Assembly: GCA_964354495.1 (NCBI GenBank)
Contig: CAYHAA010000005.1
Coordinates: 90,001 to 122,000 of the forward strand
DNA length: 32,000 bases
Direction: 5' to 3'
DNA from: an uncultured archaeon
GTDB lineage: Archaea > Asgardarchaeota > Thorarchaeia > Thorarchaeales > Thorarchaeaceae
In this document: piece by piece, positions 11,813-18,391 of the stretch
How the letters are laid out: every line of letters starts with the position of its first letter
How positions within the stretch are numbered: position 1 is the stretch's first letter
Position numbers and translations under genes: made by a program
Notes under the pieces: generated by a model
What the model was told of the DNA's origin: nothing
Databases searched by the model: none
The model's input: only the letters and a program-made list of their open reading frames with translations

Positions 11813-13516
11813 CTACTTCAGTTCGGACTTCTTTGATTCCATCAATTGAGTGATCTCATTTCGAATTGACCGAGCAACGACGAGGGCCATCTCAGTCTTC
11901 TCCGGAGATGGCGGACGCTCACCAACAACGAGCAATGAGTCAATAAGTATCTTCTCTGCTTCCATTTGTAGGTCCGATATGCTGTTCTGAAGACCGTGAT
12001 GCTCAGGAGCTGTGAGTCTACCCTTCATGTCATTAGCTATTGACTTGATCTTTCCAGCTGCCAGAAGTATCCTCTTCTTCTTTCCTGCCAGAGAGTCCCA
12101 CTCAGTACGTGCGAGAGGCACTTCAGCCTCCACCTTCTTCTCCTGATTCCTCGCATAGGCTATTGCCTTGTCAAAGACTGGGACCAATGTCTGCAGAGCG
12201 TAGGCCTTCTTCTCTGCAAGCTTTGCGTCTGCTACCTGTTCGGCCAAGGTTTCATCACCAACTAATGCATCAATCTGATCCACAACATCATTGATGACAC
12301 GGATTCGCGCCTTTGCAGAGTCCAGCTCACCTCTCTGTACCTCAGCTCGGCTTTCCTTCAGAGAAGAAGTCAGACCATCGATGACACGAAGCAGGGGTAG
12401 TGCTTCGAATTCAGACTCCTCGATTGAGGCTCGCAGGAAACCGACCCTTCCACCGGTGACATCAGAGTCCTGGAGTAGCTTCTCACTCTCCTTGAAATCC
12501 TTCAGCGTAATCAGGGTGGGGCCGGCCTGAAGACTGTAGACTGTCTTTAGCTTGTCTTCATAGGACCCTCGAACTACAACAGAGTAGTCGCGCATCCCCC
12601 CAAGGGCTTCTGCACCCCTAAGGGTGACATCTAGGTTCACGGTTTCTCCAGCGGGAAGTCTTGGAATCGTCCTCATCTTTTCGCTGGATATGAACCTCAG
12701 TCCGTCATCAAGGTGCCATTCGATTTTCATATTCGAAGCCTCGCCATCACCTGAGTTTCTGACACTTAGACGAACTGTGAAGTTCTCTGTGAAAGTGAGA
12801 TCAATGGGCACTGTTAATTGTGATGAGATTTTGGGTACCTTCAGCTTTCCTCTCAATATCTCTCGAACCATGTCGAGCCCCCTATCGACATACTTGGAGA
12901 ACTCCTGACCGGATGAGTTCGCTAGTGCGGACTTGAGTTCAGTGACAGCTGCGTTCTCGGCCTCTGCAAAGGACTCGAGATTCACACTCTGAATAGAATT
13001 CTCAAGCATTTGAGGAATCTGACTCAACCTGATAACAGCAGGAAGTCTGATTTTTGACGCATTCTCTGCAGCAAAGCCACGAGCCTTGTAGAACGCATCC
13101 GCCTCTTTGCCAATCATGACGTAGATCATGCAGGCAGCGATAGCAATGGCTGTGCCTTTGCTGGTCTCTGCATCGTCACCCCACAACAGGTGTTCAGATG
13201 ACGCGGCTAGGAGGTCATCAGCTCCGCGCTGGTATGCCGCGACAGATTTGTTGGCATCACCCAACTCTGAAAACACGTCACCAGCATCGCACATATTCAG
13301 TGCTGCCTTCTTATAGCTTCTACCAGCTCTGTATTCATCCGCAGACTTAACGAATGCTTGAGCAGCCAATACGAACTCGCGTTCCATGGTGGCTATGTCA
13401 CCTACACGCTCTGCCTGAGCAGCAGCTTGAAGGTGCATTTTTCCTGCAGACTGGCGCGTTGTGTCCCTCTGTAATTCCTCAACCCATTTTTTCGCTCTCT
13501 CGTCCGACATTGTCAA
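11813..13516 (-). CDS. Multidomain protein: alpha-SNAP/TPR-like helical N-terminus, Ig-like (CARDB/DUF11-type) domain, C-terminal coiled coil
   Basis: AAQAFVKSADEY...KAALNMCDAGDVFSELGDANKSVAAYQRG helical repeats; beta-rich FTVRLSVRNSGDGEASNMKIEWHL...LPAGETVNLDVTL; helical tail. AGGAG RBS 5 nt before the TTG. Confidence 0.75.
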   Translation of the reverse strand: MTMSDERAKKWVEELQRDTTRQSAGKMHLQAAAQAERVGDIATMEREFVLAAQAFVKSADEYRAGRSYKKAALNMCDAGDVFSELGDANKSVAAYQRGADDLLAASSEHLLWGDDAETSKGTAIAIAACMIYVMIGKEADAFYKARGFAAENASKIRLPAVIRLSQIPQMLENSIQSVNLESFAEAENAAVTELKSALANSSGQEFSKYVDRGLDMVREILRGKLKVPKISSQLTVPIDLTFTENFTVRLSVRNSGDGEASNMKIEWHLDDGLRFISSEKMRTIPRLPAGETVNLDVTLRGAEALGGMRDYSVVVRGSYEDKLKTVYSLQAGPTLITLKDFKESEKLLQDSDVTGGRVGFLRASIEESEFEALPLLRVIDGLTSSLKESRAEVQRGELDSAKARIRVINDVVDQIDALVGDETLAEQVADAKLAEKKAYALQTLVPVFDKAIAYARNQEKKVEAEVPLARTEWDSLAGKKKRILLAAGKIKSIANDMKGRLTAPEHHGLQNSISDLQMEAEKILIDSLLVVGERPPSPEKTEMALVVARSIRNEITQLMESKKSELK

Positions 13517-13612
13517 TTACACTCCTACACGGATCAGAGTCTTTCTTCGCTCATTGATTGTTTTCTTTTCAGACTAAGTAAGGCCATTCATACGTTTCAC
13601 AGAATTACCATA

Positions 13613-13906
13613 CTAGTATACTTCACGTGGTGAGTGCGTCAGACGGTCGGGAAGTCCACCGCCATGCCCTTCAATTACGAGTTCATAGCCGCGGCCAACA
13701 CGTCCGTGTTTCGCAGTCTGAAATCCTACCTTCTCAATACCACGAGCGTTTCGTTCTGCCGCTCTGCGCTCTATCATGCTAGCGCCAGTTGGTATCACAA
13801 GAATCAGTTTCTTCTGTGAATCATCCACGGTCAAGCTAATGGCAGTAGTCGGCTGTCCTGAACACTCGTGGAATTGACTATCACGATATTCGAGATTAAT
13901 CTTCAT
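13613..13906 (-). CDS. Small protein, possibly a divergent single gelsolin-like domain
   Basis: 97 aa with GGTG RBS. SLTVDDSQKKLILVIPTGASMIERRAAERNARGI resembles the gelsolin strand-strand-long helix (GAS..ER..A...A..I). Fold call is tentative. Confidence 0.6.
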   Translation of the reverse strand: MKINLEYRDSQFHECSGQPTTAISLTVDDSQKKLILVIPTGASMIERRAAERNARGIEKVGFQTAKHGRVGRGYELVIEGHGGGLPDRLTHSPREVY

Positions 13907-14009
13907 CTAGACTGTGCACCATCCAGTAGTCTGTCCTAGGGAGAAACTATCTCGGTCACATATTAGGATTTGCGCGACGAAGCGAATGGACCAAATCGCT
14001 TCTACATTG

Positions 14010-14035
14010 GCCAAAAAGAGAAAGAGAACGAGAGC
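14010..14035 (-). terminator. Possible oligo-pyrimidine/T-tract terminator after the polyproline membrane gene
   Basis: Minus strand CTCTCGTTCTCTTTCTCTTTTTGG, preceded by a short CTGAG/CTCAG inverted repeat. Confidence 0.3.
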
Positions 14036-14088
14036 CCAAGGGTCTGAGTGGCCCAAGAGCTCAGGTGTAATGATGGATCCAGTGAGGA

Positions 14089-14379
14089 TTAGTCTGGTGG
14101 CGGTGGCGGTGGTGGAGTGTCACTCAACTTCTTTGTGTCGATTCGGGCAGTGACAGAGTCACGTTTCTTCTTTGTGAAGAGGAAGCCCATTATGATGAAT
14201 AATACTCCAACGATTGCTATAGCAGCGCCGGCCAGTACGGTGTATCCAGGTATGAAGTCGTAGGCTGGGTTATACCCAGGCAACAGCGCTAGAACTGCGC
14301 CAACAATCACAAGGAGTGCGCCTAGACACACAGGACCAGAACGCGTGTATTCACGCCAAGTTAAGTAGCTCAATGTCAT
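14089..14379 (-). CDS. Two-TM membrane protein with C-terminal heptaproline tail
   Basis: Two hydrophobic helices, basic KKKR stop-transfer, ends TPPPPPPPD. ATG at 14379 follows AGGAG; a GTG at 14403 is the alternative start. Confidence 0.75.
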   Translation of the reverse strand: MTLSYLTWREYTRSGPVCLGALLVIVGAVLALLPGYNPAYDFIPGYTVLAGAAIAIVGVLFIIMGFLFTKKKRDSVTARIDTKKLSDTPPPPPPPD

Positions 14380-14482
14380 AAGCTCCTGTTCGAGACTCAC
14401 CACGTAGTCTCGTCTAATCGTACATGAATCGGTTCAAGCGATTTAAGATTATTGGGTGGCTAAGAGGAGGATTGTTCTGGTC

Positions 14483-15370
14483 TCAAAAGAGTGCAGACTC
14501 AGTAGACATACCAACGATGCAGCCTGTTGATGAGGTGTTGACACTGACTTTGATACCTGACAGGTCACTAATCTTCTTAGCAATCAACTCATGAAACGTA
14601 CATGGGTACCCTGCGGGCATCCTCGACATGTTTGGATCAAGCGATCTACAGATGCGCAATAACTCGCAGGTTCCGGTTTCAATTGTTGCACTACCCGTAC
14701 CAGTCCTCGGTAATTGACTCTCCCTTGAACAGCTCTGAATCAATGCTCCGAAACCCTTGAGCATTGCTGACTGGTCAGCGGGATTAGATGTGACCCAGAA
14801 ATGTATCAGTTGGTCAGCAGCCTTACTAAACATTGATTCTAGGTGTCCTGTGGGAAGGCTCTTGGCATATGCAGAGACCTCGTAAATCAGCGCAGCATGT
14901 GCTTCGATGAGTTGCTGCCATGCAGCATCTCCAATTGTTCTAGGCATTTGCGGCACTTCTGCTACTCTAAGATCTGGAAGTGCTGTTGTTGCTGCCGCTT
15001 CCGGTGACGCACTTTCGGAACTACTGCCCGATGGATCTGCCTGTGCGCCTGCAGTTGAACCATCATCGTAGGTGAATTCAGCCAACTCATAGCTCGGACA
15101 TACGCCACTCTGTTGATACTTGCGTGCATACTGCATTAATCTGCCTGCCATGGTGGCCACAGCATATCGGCTGAGTCCTTCTACTCTAATATGACCGTAT
15201 GCCACACCCACAATGTTGTCGAGCTCAAGACAGGGAATGGTCTTCTCAGCGATTATCTTCCTCCCGTGCACAACACGCACAGCCCACATTTCATTCAAAA
15301 CGCCAGCTTGTGCGCCATAGCTTGTGTTGGTAATGCCAACGAGTGGCGATATGGGATAGAAGTCACTCAT
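14483..15370 (-). CDS. Two-domain hypothetical protein; C-terminal domain possibly of V4R/Bet3/HNOX-like fold
   Basis: Globular N-domain, Ser/Ala/Pro linker, then TGTCELLRIC...GYPCTFHELIAKKISDLSGIKVSV...GCIV (C..C..H..C pattern). ATG at 15370 follows GGAGG. Confidence 0.7.
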   Translation of the reverse strand: MSDFYPISPLVGITNTSYGAQAGVLNEMWAVRVVHGRKIIAEKTIPCLELDNIVGVAYGHIRVEGLSRYAVATMAGRLMQYARKYQQSGVCPSYELAEFTYDDGSTAGAQADPSGSSSESASPEAAATTALPDLRVAEVPQMPRTIGDAAWQQLIEAHAALIYEVSAYAKSLPTGHLESMFSKAADQLIHFWVTSNPADQSAMLKGFGALIQSCSRESQLPRTGTGSATIETGTCELLRICRSLDPNMSRMPAGYPCTFHELIAKKISDLSGIKVSVNTSSTGCIVGMSTESALF

Positions 15371-15576
15371 TTCCTTGCCTCCAGAACGTGGGCGCATTCC
15401 TCATCATTGAATTGCCATTCAAAAGGGTATCGTGGTTGTAGTTCAATGTGCATTTCTGCCCATCTCGATGGGTGCGCCTCTTGTGATATTCACATCTGCA
15501 ATAGTTGGTCATGCGCGGCGAAAAGAACAAGAAAAGGACTGGACTATTGTGTTTCATCCAGTCCGATTCAATCATC

Positions 15577-17766
15577 TCACATGTAGCCAGGTAGCACATC
15601 AGATGATTTTTGGGGCTGCCGCTTCTTGACTTGTTCAGCCAGCTCCAAGAATCGTTTCAGATCGTCCGGCGAGATGCTTGGACGGATTTCCTCTAGTGCA
15701 GCCTTGAAATGCTTCATGTGAACGGGCTTTGTCTTCCAATCACTTCGAACTGCAGCCATTGCAGCCTCTCTGACAAGGCCTTCAATGTCAGCCCCGGAGA
15801 AGCCATCGGTCATGTCAGACAGTTTCTCAATACTCACATCATCGGCCAATGGCATGTTACGTGTGTGTACCTTGAAGATATCGACTCTTGCATCGCGATC
15901 CGGAGGTGGAACGAATAGCACTGAATCGAAACGGCCGGGTCGAAGCACAGCTGGATCTAGGATGTCCGCCCTGTTAGTGGCACCTATCACAAGCACGTTT
16001 TGAAGGGATACCATACCATCAAGTTCAGCGAGGAATTGATTCACGATTCTATGGCTCACACCAGTGTCGTCACGCATCCCTCGTGCGCCTAGTATCGCGT
16101 CAATCTCATCGAAGAAGAGCACGCACGGAGCCACTTGGCGTGCCTTCTTGAACACCTCGCGTATAGCCTTCTCAGACTCTCCGACGTACTTGTTGAACAC
16201 CTCAGGACCCCTCACGGAGATGAAGTTGGCTTCGGTCTCAGTAGCTACCGCTTTTGCAAGCAGGGTCTTACCCGTTCCAGGCGGCCCGAATAGGAGTACT
16301 CCCTTTGGTGCCCTGATACCCATTCCTTCAAAGACTTCAGGGTATTTCAGAGGCGCTTCAACGGCCTCACGTAGTTGCATCTTGACCTTAGCTAGACCGC
16401 CTACATCATCCCACCGTACATTAGGCTTCTCGACAAGAACCTCTCTCAGCGCGGAGGGAGATACCTCTGTAAGAGCCAGCTCGAAATCAGCTTGGGTGAC
16501 GTAGAGGTTGTTCAAGAGGTCGGCAGGAATGTCTCCTGTGTCTGGATCGACATGCGGCAACACTCTTCGCAGAGCCTGCATTGCAGCCTCTCGAGCCAAT
16601 GCAGAGAGGTCAGCACCAACGAACCCGTGAGTGACCGCAGCCAGCTTCTCTAGATCAAGACCCTCCTCTAATGGCATAGCCCTCGTGTGAATCTGAAGAA
16701 TCTCAAGTCGTCCCTTCTTATCAGGCACTCCGAGGACGATCTCTCTATCGAATCTACCGGGTCTTCTCAGAGCATCATCAATATCGTCCGGACGGTTAGT
16801 CGCACCGATGACTATTACCTCACCACGACTGGCGAGACCGTCCATGAGCGACAATAGCTGCGCGACAACTCTCCGTTCGACCTCTCCCGTGACTTCTGCA
16901 CGTTTCGGCGCAATACTATCTAGCTCGTCGATGAATATGATGGATGGCGCATTCTTCTCTGCGTCTTCAAAGGTTTCACGCAGTTTCTGTTCAGACTCTC
17001 CATAGAACTTCGACATGATCTCAGGACCATTTATCACCTTGAAGTTCGCACCCGACTCATTGGCAACGGCTCGTGCAATCAAGGTCTTTCCGGTTCCCGG
17101 AGGCCCCATGAGAAGCACGCCCTTGGGCGGAGTAATTCCAAGCCTCTTGAACAACTCTGGCGACTTCATGGGTAGTTCTATCATTTCACGGATCTTGACC
17201 AGCTCCTTGCCAAGCCCTCCGATATCTTCGTACGAAACTTGGGGAAATGAAATGTCCTCTAGTCGAACTGGCTTGGTCAAAACCTCAACCAAGGTGTCAG
17301 GTGTGATTCTGCCAAACTTGCCAGGCGCTACAGCTGTGGCCGTGAATTGCATTCCCTGTCCAATCGAAGAGATAAGAATCGTATCGCCCTTGGTGATCGG
17401 CCGATTGAGTATCTGCTGCTTCAAATAGCTGTCAAAGCCCGGCTGAAATCTGACGGGCTGACTAGGTGCAATGACAACGCGTGTTGCCTCAGGAACAGTC
17501 ACGCTACTTACTTCTACCAACTCTCCCAGCTTGACGCCTGCATTACTACGAATCAAGCCATCCATCCGGACCATGTCCAGGACTTCATCCTCCCTGAGAC
17601 TGGGCCAGCAGACAGCTATTGTTTCCTTGCTACCTCTGACCAAGACGTAGTCTCCGGACCTAACTCCAAGGTGACTCCTCACGTCAGAGTTCAATCTGAT
17701 AATGCCACGTCCTTGATCCTTGGGCATAGCAGCGGCGACTTTCAGTCGGATTGCGTTTTCGCTCAT
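15577..17766 (-). CDS. cdc48: Cdc48/p97/VAT double AAA+ ATPase
   Basis: Double-psi N-domain (DQGRGIIRL), two Walker A GPPGTGKT, Walker B IIFIDELD and [18 protein letters not shown] and RPGRFD, C-terminal GYM (penultimate Tyr). Confidence 0.97.
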
Positions 17767-17780
17767 TCTCGTTTCCCTCT

Positions 17781-18224
17781 CTAATCTAGCATCAAATATC
17801 CTTCTCTATTTCCAGAATTGCCTTTCTTTGCAATCTTCAATGATATCTCCATAACACCGTTCCGCAAAGATGCGTGTGAGTGATTGATATCAACATCAAA
17901 GCCTAAGTCGACGCGTCTCTCTTTGCCATCAATCTCGTGAATGATTTTCAGAGTCTTCGCTTCAACCTTGACTGAATATTCATTCGCATCATTGTAGCCG
18001 ATATTGACGATGAATAGCACTTCATCTTCTAGATCAATTTGTTCAATATCTGGTTCCGTATCCGATAGGATTCTGCCCTCACTATCGGCATCATTGAATA
18101 CTGAGCCAGTGACATAGCTAAATGATGCAGTACCCTCTGGAAACGCTTCAAGAGACCCCCTGAGGGACTCGAGCATTCTTCTGAACACTGACTCAAAGTC
18201 ATCGTCTATCAAATGAGAATCCAT
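17781..18224 (-). CDS. hsp20: Small heat-shock protein (Hsp20/alpha-crystallin-like)
   Basis: C-terminal SHASLRNGVMEISLK motif, acidic N-terminus, lies directly upstream of cdc48 as is common in archaea. ATG at 18224 follows GGAGG. Confidence 0.75.
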   Translation of the reverse strand: MDSHLIDDDFESVFRRMLESLRGSLEAFPEGTASFSYVTGSVFNDADSEGRILSDTEPDIEQIDLEDEVLFIVNIGYNDANEYSVKVEAKTLKIIHEIDGKERRVDLGFDVDINHSHASLRNGVMEISLKIAKKGNSGNREGYLMLD

Positions 18225-18308: not shown

Positions 18309-18345
18309 TAGTATACCACTTGGTATACTAATACCACTTGGTATA
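18309..18345. promoter_or_regulatory. Tandem palindromic operator upstream of hsp20-cdc48
   Basis: Perfect 10-bp inverted repeat TAGTATACCA-ct-TGGTATACTA (18309-18330). The 15-mer ATACCACTTGGTATA occurs at 18313 and 18331. Confidence 0.7.
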
Positions 18346-18350
18346 TTAGG

Positions 18351-18358
18351 TATATAAA
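18351..18358 (-). promoter_or_regulatory. TATA box of the hsp20-cdc48 promoter
   Basis: Minus strand TTTATATA, about 25 nt upstream of the operator centre. Confidence 0.6.
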
Positions 18359-18391
18359 CCTTAGGAAGTGCTCATCACTTTGGAGGGACAA

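Follow-up and report, generated by a model that had tools for sequence, protein, structure and literature searches.

Do six co-oriented genes that begin with hsp20 and cdc48 encode one machine, or do they comprise separate units on a common strand? The question is raised by a 32,000-nucleotide stretch of DNA from an uncultured archaeon of the Thorarchaeaceae (hereafter the window; contig CAYHAA010000005.1, C5:90001-122000 of a 3.3 Mb host genome that is 98% complete), where the minus strand carries six successive open reading frames (ORFs) between 11813 and 18224, arranged head to tail in the order hsp20, cdc48, p304, p104, p97 and p567. The initial annotation proposed that all six together form a Cdc48-driven membrane/actin machine. 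The genes themselves are real and lie where that annotation placed them, and the four downstream of cdc48 are conserved, with 88-208 database relatives each, nearly all labelled Thorarchaeota, and with the same order across 14-16 genera. The single Cdc48-driven machine is not supported by the evidence described below. Instead, we consider it probable that the run is a composite of two parts, namely an hsp20-cdc48 operon and a separately transcribed four-gene Thorarchaeaceae string, for which a membrane-proximal role in the cytoskeleton is offered as a guess.

The first line of evidence is the junction between cdc48 and p304. We compared the window with 27 orthologous loci, from which the start codons of hsp20, p304, p104 and p567 were also refined; the resulting intergenic gaps, from hsp20 to p567 in order, measure 14, about 180-206, 79-103, 182 and 96-102 nt. 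Where cdc48 and p304 are present on one contig, a co-oriented gene of about 830 aa is located between them in 16 of 26 loci and in 11 of 14 genera. This intervening gene encodes a GH38 alpha-mannosidase (PF01074, PF07748 and others). It is seen, for example, at L026:9344-11872, with equivalents in L022, L024, L027, L030, L031, L034, L038, L039 and L043. The host genome lacks GH38 at this locus and carries a 27%-identical paralogue elsewhere. Since the insert is present in most genera, and certain members of the genus to which the window belongs carry it too, a direct junction of cdc48 with p304 appears to be the derived state, and the distribution is most simply explained by GH38 having been lost from the locus several times, including in the window genome. 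The position of the string beside cdc48 is thus, as judged from family-wide collinearity and the loss of GH38 in this genome, secondary.

The intergenic regions also divide the run. Downstream of cdc48, a terminator-like element can be read directly at 15520-15564 (minus strand), where an 8-bp stem (GGACTGGA/TCCAGTCC) encloses a 13-nt loop and is followed by TTTTCTTGTTCTTTTC; a hairpin of differing sequence with a T-rich tract is found 3' of cdc48 in 17 of 26 loci. A second terminator-like hairpin with a T-rich tract, TTCTCTTTCTCTTTTT, is likewise read directly behind p104 at 14011-14062 (minus strand), and 25 of 28 loci have a T-rich tract no more than 90 nt past the p104 stop codon, mostly behind a hairpin of varying sequence. 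The possible internal terminator mentioned in the initial annotation therefore has two counterparts. A scan for sigma-70 promoters and terminators performed at chance level and is unsuited to archaea; it admits loops of up to 8 nt only and so missed the cdc48 hairpin.

Conserved blocks are observed 45-75 nt before the starts of p304, p104 and p97, each followed by a ribosome-binding site. The candidate promoter box of p304, CACGATACCCTTTTGAATGG at 15415-15434 (minus strand), lies 45-64 nt 5' of the conserved start, and other genera retain the CGATAYCCTTTTGA block with that same spacing, no matter which of cdc48 and GH38 precedes it. Before p104, a conserved TATA-like box, CCCAATAATCTTAAATCG, is located at 14439-14456 (minus strand), with the conserved block AATCTTAAATC preceding the ribosome-binding site across genera. 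CTTAAA/TTAAAT is present there in about 26 of 28 loci, and these two hexamers are among those most enriched 5' of host genes, 7-8-fold relative to the whole genome and 13-19-fold relative to coding sequence. The p104 box lies within 10-40 nt of the p304 stop codon, so that read-through from p304 into p104 is possible. The conserved TATA-like box of p97, GCAAATCCTAATATGTGACC, spans 13954-13973 (minus strand), and the genera share a CAAATSCTAATATG block, placed 50-60 nt 5' of the start and followed by a GGATGG ribosome-binding site. No conserved promoter box is seen in the p97-p567 spacer, where a T-tract occurs in few loci, and p97 and p567 are therefore probably co-transcribed. This spacer (13511-13612) is not conserved in sequence; several genera bear a hairpin with an A-rich loop within it, for example GGCTCCG..CGGAGCC in L022 and GCGAGCTT..AAGCTCGT in L036.

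With three internal TATA-like boxes, two terminator-like sites and a GH38 insert in most loci, the six genes do not appear to constitute a single transcript. Rather, the predicted transcription units are hsp20-cdc48, GH38 where present, p304, p104 and p97-p567, that is, three or four at this locus, such that the string would be transcribed from its own promoters, one of them serving p304 and perhaps p104 as well, one p104 and one p97-p567.

The hsp20-cdc48 pair itself has the features of an operon. The cdc48 start codon lies 14 nt 3' of the hsp20 stop codon and is preceded by a GAGG ribosome-binding site, and in most loci the spacer is 12-25 nt with a ribosome-binding site, being longer in a few. 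The two genes would share one promoter and one leader. In the candidate operator at 18314-18343, the palindrome TACCACTTGGTA occurs twice, immediately 3' of a TTTATATA box (18349-18360, minus strand). These are the only two matches to the palindrome within the 32-kb window, it is not repeated before any downstream gene there, and similar palindromes are found 5' of hsp20 in other genera. Genome-wide, the palindrome TACCANNTGGTA has four copies, two of them at the hsp20 promoter and one at C11:45690, the last in an A/T-rich, operator-like context (GGTATAATAATACCATATGGTATAATAG).

Of the two protein identities given in the initial annotation, that of Cdc48 is confirmed, and that of Hsp20 is upheld by a profile of its orthologues. 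hsp20 (17781-18224, minus strand, ORF open to 18269, conserved start MIDDDF at about 18212) encodes a divergent small heat-shock protein of about 143-147 aa with an alpha-crystallin domain. The product has no match to the Pfam HSP20 model, which is matched by one of 17 orthologues (E 0.025), and reaches 29.6 bits with NF041800, under the cut-off of 140. A profile built from the 17 orthologues finds solved small heat-shock proteins (4rzk with E 7e-9, Hsp16.5 (1shs) with E 2e-4 to 4e-4) and thus points to the window protein as a divergent member of this family. cdc48 (15577-17766, minus strand) encodes a 729-aa double-ring AAA+ ATPase of the Cdc48/VAT type, which exceeds the TIGR01243 cut-off (1052.8 versus 802.65 bits) and contains CDC48_N (PF02359), CDC48_2 (PF02933) and two AAA domains (PF00004). 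A second full-length Cdc48 paralogue is encoded at C20:35425-37569 (TIGR01243, 1031 bits).

The C-terminus of the window Cdc48 ends in ..PGYM, with tyrosine as the penultimate residue. In other archaeal Cdc48 proteins, a C-terminal motif of this penultimate-tyrosine type docks the 20S proteasome. The pair most likely functions as do the small heat-shock protein and AAA+ ATPase of stress regulons in other archaea. Proteins that begin to unfold would be kept by the small heat-shock protein and then unraveled by Cdc48, with probable delivery to the 20S proteasome. Taken together, hsp20-cdc48 is most likely a self-contained protein-quality-control operon, which represents known archaeal biology.

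Could Cdc48 nevertheless drive the downstream proteins? In such a scheme, p567 would play the part of a SNAP-like adaptor and bring Cdc48 to a substrate built as a helical bundle, with p304, p104 and p97 as further parts. The scheme draws on the N-terminal domain of p567, which is closest to SNAP among the helical-repeat families, on the co-orientation and shared order of the six genes across the family, and on the derivation of NSF from Cdc48, together with the proposal that archaeal Cdc48 acts on SNARE-like bundles (10.64898/2026.10.19.760048). However, the interposed GH38 gene in most genera, the terminator-like site after cdc48, the separate downstream promoters and the hsp20 operator, which the downstream genes do not share, all argue against it. 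SNARE-like proteins are, moreover, reported from Heimdallarchaeia only, not Thorarchaeia (bioRxiv 10.64898/2026.10.19.760048), which removes the obvious substrate of a SNAP-type adaptor.

Gene neighbourhoods outside the family point in the same direction. The initial annotation had named synteny with cdc48 in other Asgard lineages as a check. Relatives of p304 and p97 were not found outside Thorarchaeaceae, and p567 is the sole gene of the four with relatives outside Thorarchaeales. For the outside-family set, 21 loci were fetched and the p567 homologue was located in 20, which span families f2, f4, f5, f8, f10, f14, f17, f18, f21 and f25; relatives of cdc48, p304 or p97 occur within about 8 kb of it in none of these 20 loci. 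For p567, therefore, the lack of synteny with cdc48 that the initial annotation had named as evidence against its model is observed. The sister family alone keeps a p104-like gene directly 5' of the p567 homologue, in changed surroundings. Across the other Asgard families, p567 homologues have no conserved neighbours beyond collinearity within each family and a roadblock-type gene in three of them. The latter is of the roadblock/LC7 type, encodes about 130 aa and is found no further than 6 kb from the p567 homologue in f1, f2 and f4 (L013:6388-6786, L015:7821-8219, L017:8466-8852 and L026:3859-4290); Asgard genomes contain many roadblock paralogues and the proximity may be due to chance.

The adaptor itself is also doubtful. 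p567 (11813-13510, minus strand, ORF 11813-13516) starts at 13510 in databases and relatives, giving 565 aa. On the basis of alignment A1, it appears to consist of SNAP/TPR (tetratricopeptide repeat)-like helical hairpins (about 1-225), a CARDB-type immunoglobulin (Ig) domain (about 226-340) with an invariant NxGxGxA, and, from about 345 to 565, a tail that is helical or coiled-coil. Among 14 diverse relatives, the SNAP model PF14938 matches six (best E 5.5e-8) and CARDB matches eight. When the family profile is compared with the PDB, alpha-SNAP is the best match (E 0.008), followed by Sec17 and gamma-SNAP, over about 90 columns. The window p567 itself has no PF14938 match at E <= 0.05, and the model also matches TPR proteins of bacterial control genomes and other host proteins. 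We have therefore rejected the SNAP-like match as evidence of a Cdc48 adaptor. What stands of the SNAP-like assignment in the initial annotation is that the N-terminal domain is closer to SNAP than to other TPR-like families; the match is weak and non-specific, about 100-170 residues of p567 are SNAP-like, and in place of the C-terminal bundle of SNAP the protein has an Ig domain and a coiled coil. Overall, a membrane/actin machine driven by Cdc48 is very improbable.

The p567 family is Asgard-wide, with about 60 full-length clusters at 50% identity, and is present in 12 of 23 sampled Asgard families, usually once per genome. A 416-aa paralogue at C5:23176-24426 (L047) has a SNAP/TPR-like N-terminal domain and one or two Ig-like domains and lacks the coiled coil. 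In Atlas it falls with a cluster of Thorarchaeota proteins, likewise of 416 aa, 25% of whose members bear PF14938.

Having separated the string from Cdc48, we turn to its other members. p304 (14483-15370, minus strand, ORF 14483-15397) begins at a conserved MSDFYP start at 15370 and is 295 aa long. The AlphaFold2 model (predicted local distance difference test, pLDDT, 86) shows two domains joined by a disordered linker, a conserved N-terminal domain (1-105) and a TRAPPC3/Bet3/V4R-like C-terminal domain (about 147-292). Both realignment of the Foldseek list and an independent search of 48,161 chains return fold matches for the C-terminal domain at Z 5.6-7.6 over 127-145 residues, encompassing TPC6 (Z 7.6, 129 residues), Bet3/TRAPPC3 (Bet3 Z 7.2-7.5, 137-141 residues), Thor TRAPPC3 (7yh2; Z 6.1, 130 residues), the sensors PoxR, MopR and DmpR (Z 5.8-6.4), BcsD, YslB and H-NOX. 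V4R, ATC-hydrolase and H-NOX models are retrieved from Atlas and the AlphaFold database, with Atlas template-modelling (TM) scores by hit of 0.69-0.72. The Z-scores are middling and the set of matches is coherent, and the modelled domain is assigned the two-layer alpha/beta TRAPPC3(Bet3)/V4R fold, as the V4R/Bet3-like guess in the initial annotation had anticipated.

At the level of sequence, none of 62 p304 family members matches PF04051 or PF02830 at E <= 0.1, the single protein has no Pfam or NCBIfam match, and the PDB profile search is empty. Five residues are invariant (C214, C235, C257, H260 and C284) and are located, by secondary structure, at strand ends and a helix start. This Cys/His cluster would fit a putative Zn site of the Thor-TRAPPC3/PoxR type; Thor-TRAPPC3 shares the same circle of structural relatives as the p304 C-terminal domain and binds Zn via four cysteines (Tran et al. 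2024, PMC10933270). For the N-terminal domain, no solved structure scores above Z 4.5 (VIA at Z 4-4.5) and the Atlas feature search gave no usable match. Its likeness is to the N-terminal region of proteins annotated in Asgard archaea as 'zinc-ribbon domain' (AlphaFold database A0A5C9EYW4, E 1.4e-6; an Atlas cluster of 218-aa proteins), and domains of this kind are so far seen in Asgard entries only and are uncharacterised.

The fold of p304 invites a further explanation, in which its Bet3/TRAPPC3-like domain and the solenoid-plus-Ig architecture of p567, as in TRAPPC8/11, would form a proto-TRAPP-like pair acting as a membrane tether or guanine-nucleotide exchange factor platform. The match of the p304 domain to Bet3, TPC6 and Thor-TRAPPC3 is consistent with this, as are the Atlas features that link p567 to TRAPPC11 and TRAPPC8 clusters at 0.76-0.77, although Atlas scores under 0.9 are leads only, and a longin-TRAPPC3 fusion has been described in Heimdall (PMC10933270). 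Yet bacterial V4R sensors match the p304 domain no less closely, and its Cys/His cluster is typical of Zn-stabilised V4R ligand binders. In addition, the host genome has two canonical TRAPP-domain genes outside this locus, no longin or small GTPase gene lies within the string, and p567 is widespread without p304. We regard a proto-TRAPP pair as highly unlikely.

p97 (13613-13906, minus strand) encodes a 97-aa protein that consists of one gelsolin/ADF-fold domain. Conservation among the four downstream proteins is highest for p97 (63-99% identity), which is found in Thorarchaeota only. Two of its segments are invariant, the helix RAAERNAR and the C-terminal LPDRLxHSPREVY. The best match of its AlphaFold2 model (pLDDT 81) among 48,161 chains is Thor ProGel (7c2f), with Z 9.1 and a root-mean-square deviation of 2.9 Å over 73 of 88 residues, and about 33 gelsolin, villin, adseverin, fragmin, severin and cofilin/ADF entries rank after it. 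Foldseek gives E 1e-3, TM scores of 0.60/0.65 and a probability of 1.00 for the same pair, and the Atlas language-model features place p97 near an Asgard cluster with Gelsolin on 28% of its members (0.91, 178 shared). The model thus has a gelsolin/ADF fold whose nearest relative is Thor ProGel. PF00626, by comparison, misses p97 yet finds two other gelsolin genes in the host genome; there is no NCBIfam match, the PDB profile search yields empty or chance results, and hhalign against the host's own ProGel-like gene returns a probability of 0.3%, that is, no sequence similarity. p97 contains no tryptophan and hence lacks the DWG motif that is common to ProGel and 2DGel (Akil et al. 2020, PMC7444086). 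The gelsolin-like guess of the initial annotation therefore holds for the fold, and fails for the sequence family and the DWG motif.

p104 (14089-14379, minus strand, ORF 14089-14403) has a conserved ATG start at 14379 and is 96 aa long. Two hydrophobic transmembrane helices are followed by a tail that is basic and then acidic, KKKRDSV..D(T/V)PPPPPPPD, and by the positive-inside rule both ends would face the cytoplasm. The initial annotation had described a two-transmembrane heptaproline protein here, and 27 of 28 loci, among them that of the sister family (L013), retain a tail ending in at least seven prolines or PPAPPPP; that of L033 has six. Asgard profilins are reported to bind polyproline peptides of eukaryotic origin, but we know of no native polyproline ligand of theirs.

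The 5' leader of p104 contains a conserved hairpin at 14391-14414 (minus strand), GACGAGAC..GTCTCG, which immediately precedes the ribosome-binding site AGGAG. In an alignment of 26 loci, pairing holds in 80% of cells, and each of the seven pairs has compensatory changes on both sides. The observed values were not reached in any of 500 shuffles, and pairing in slid controls was 16-43%. The hairpin could control p104 translation.

How might the four proteins work together? If they cooperate at the membrane, the heptaproline tract of p104 would recruit a polyproline reader to the inner membrane face, most likely profilin-actin. This could be so because a preprint has Thor profilin binding the polyproline of VASP (10.1101/2021.08.06.455371). 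p97 would act on actin in the manner of ProGel, or bind p567, which would itself serve as a dimeric scaffold, as its helical tail suggests, and p304 would contribute a Zn-stabilised ligand-binding domain. At best, we would give such cooperation a minority share of the probability, about the same as that of the alternative that the four are functionally unrelated neighbours (a ligand-binding V4R protein, a small membrane protein, a gelsolin-fold protein and a TPR/Ig scaffold) held in a frozen gene order in Thorarchaeaceae.

Within the family, gene order is conserved in all Thorarchaeaceae genera, and so are unrelated flanks comprising a site-2 protease, an FAD (flavin adenine dinucleotide) enzyme and a convergent alanine aminotransferase. 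Within-family synteny is for this reason little informative, and the equal collinearity of the whole 12-kb region, GH38 included, is what would be expected of frozen neighbours. The separate promoter-like boxes of p304, p104 and p97 are also in keeping with unrelated functions, as are the restriction of p304 and p97 to one family while p567 is Asgard-wide, and the lack of conserved neighbours of p567 homologues across families elsewhere. Against this, the adjacency of p104 and p567 is kept in the sister family despite changed surroundings, p97 and p567 appear to share a transcript, and all four proteins have folds or motifs tied in eukaryotes to membrane and actin biology, more coincidence than is usual among random neighbours. 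We consider unrelated, frozen neighbours possible, though less likely than not. A stronger form of the cooperative reading would make the string a Thorarchaeaceae membrane-anchored actin module, with the p104 tail as the first endogenous Asgard profilin ligand and a minimal stand-in for formin FH1/VASP, p97 as a third gelsolin-type actin regulator made with the scaffold p567, and the V4R/TRAPPC3 domain of p304 coupling the module to a small-molecule or lipid signal. So specific a module seems to us distinctly improbable.

Several observations weigh against the composite that we prefer, with its separately transcribed, membrane-proximal string. The promoter and terminator calls are based on conservation and composition, and read-through from cdc48 into p304 is possible in genomes without GH38. 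Throughout the family, all six genes keep one orientation and one order, as a functional link would likewise predict. The functional guess for the four genes is based on folds and one motif, and p97 is without the DWG of actin-binding gelsolins. Gelsolin folds are also present in Sec23/24, and for the one in Sec23 no actin binding is known (PMC7444086), so that the fold of p97 alone is no proof of an actin role. Finally, the Pfam profilin model PF00235 has no match in the host genome, nor in any control genome, which renders that search uninformative.

With the composite as our preferred reading, hsp20-cdc48 represents ordinary archaeal proteostasis and the value of the locus lies in the four adjoining genes, which are new variants of known Asgard protein kinds. 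New here are a gelsolin-fold family missed by Pfam and by sequence searches, a TRAPPC3/V4R domain in a new fusion, an Asgard-wide protein that joins a SNAP-like helical domain to an Ig domain and a coiled coil, and a tiny membrane protein with a heptaproline tail that is predicted to be cytoplasmic. The p104 tail is a concrete, synthesisable candidate for a native Asgard profilin ligand, which makes the question directly testable, and the apparent lack of coupling to Cdc48 removes an attractive but unsupported 'proto-NSF/SNAP' story.

The two parts of the locus are similar to, but distinct from, a number of known systems. The regulons of Phr (Pyrococcus) and HSR1 (Archaeoglobus) contain a small heat-shock protein gene and an AAA+ ATPase gene (PMC10653856), and the hsp20-cdc48 pair resembles them in placing a small heat-shock protein gene and a Cdc48-type AAA+ ATPase gene under joint control. 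At this locus the two genes would form an operon behind palindromic sites that overlap the promoter. A difference is that the small heat-shock protein is too divergent for the Pfam HSP20 model. p304 shares with Thor-TRAPPC3 and the bacterial V4R sensors a fold of about 145 residues. Its conserved Cys/His cluster may correspond to the site, located between the beta-sheet and a helix, at which Zn is bound in Thor-TRAPPC3 and PoxR. It differs from them in its silence to PF04051/PF02830, in its modest Z-scores and in the fusion, by way of a disordered linker, to a 105-residue N-terminal domain.

The seven-proline run of p104, on a flexible and, as predicted, cytoplasm-facing tail, is reminiscent of eukaryotic profilin ligands such as formin FH1 and Ena/VASP, whereas the protein that carries it has 96 aa, two transmembrane helices and no FH2, EVH1 or WH2 domain, and is a candidate ligand only. 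p97 is, like Thor ProGel, a single-domain protein of about 90-100 aa with a gelsolin/cofilin fold and comes from the same phylum, but the two share 14-16% identity, and p97 is negative for PF00626, lacks DWG and has the additional invariant C-terminal LPDRLxHSPREVY. Lastly, p567 has helical-hairpin repeats in common with alpha-SNAP/Sec17, with PF14938 matches in family members. While alpha-SNAP/Sec17 is an all-helical protein of about 290 aa that ends in an NSF-contacting bundle, p567 continues after its helical domain of about 225 aa with the CARDB-type Ig domain and the long helical tail.

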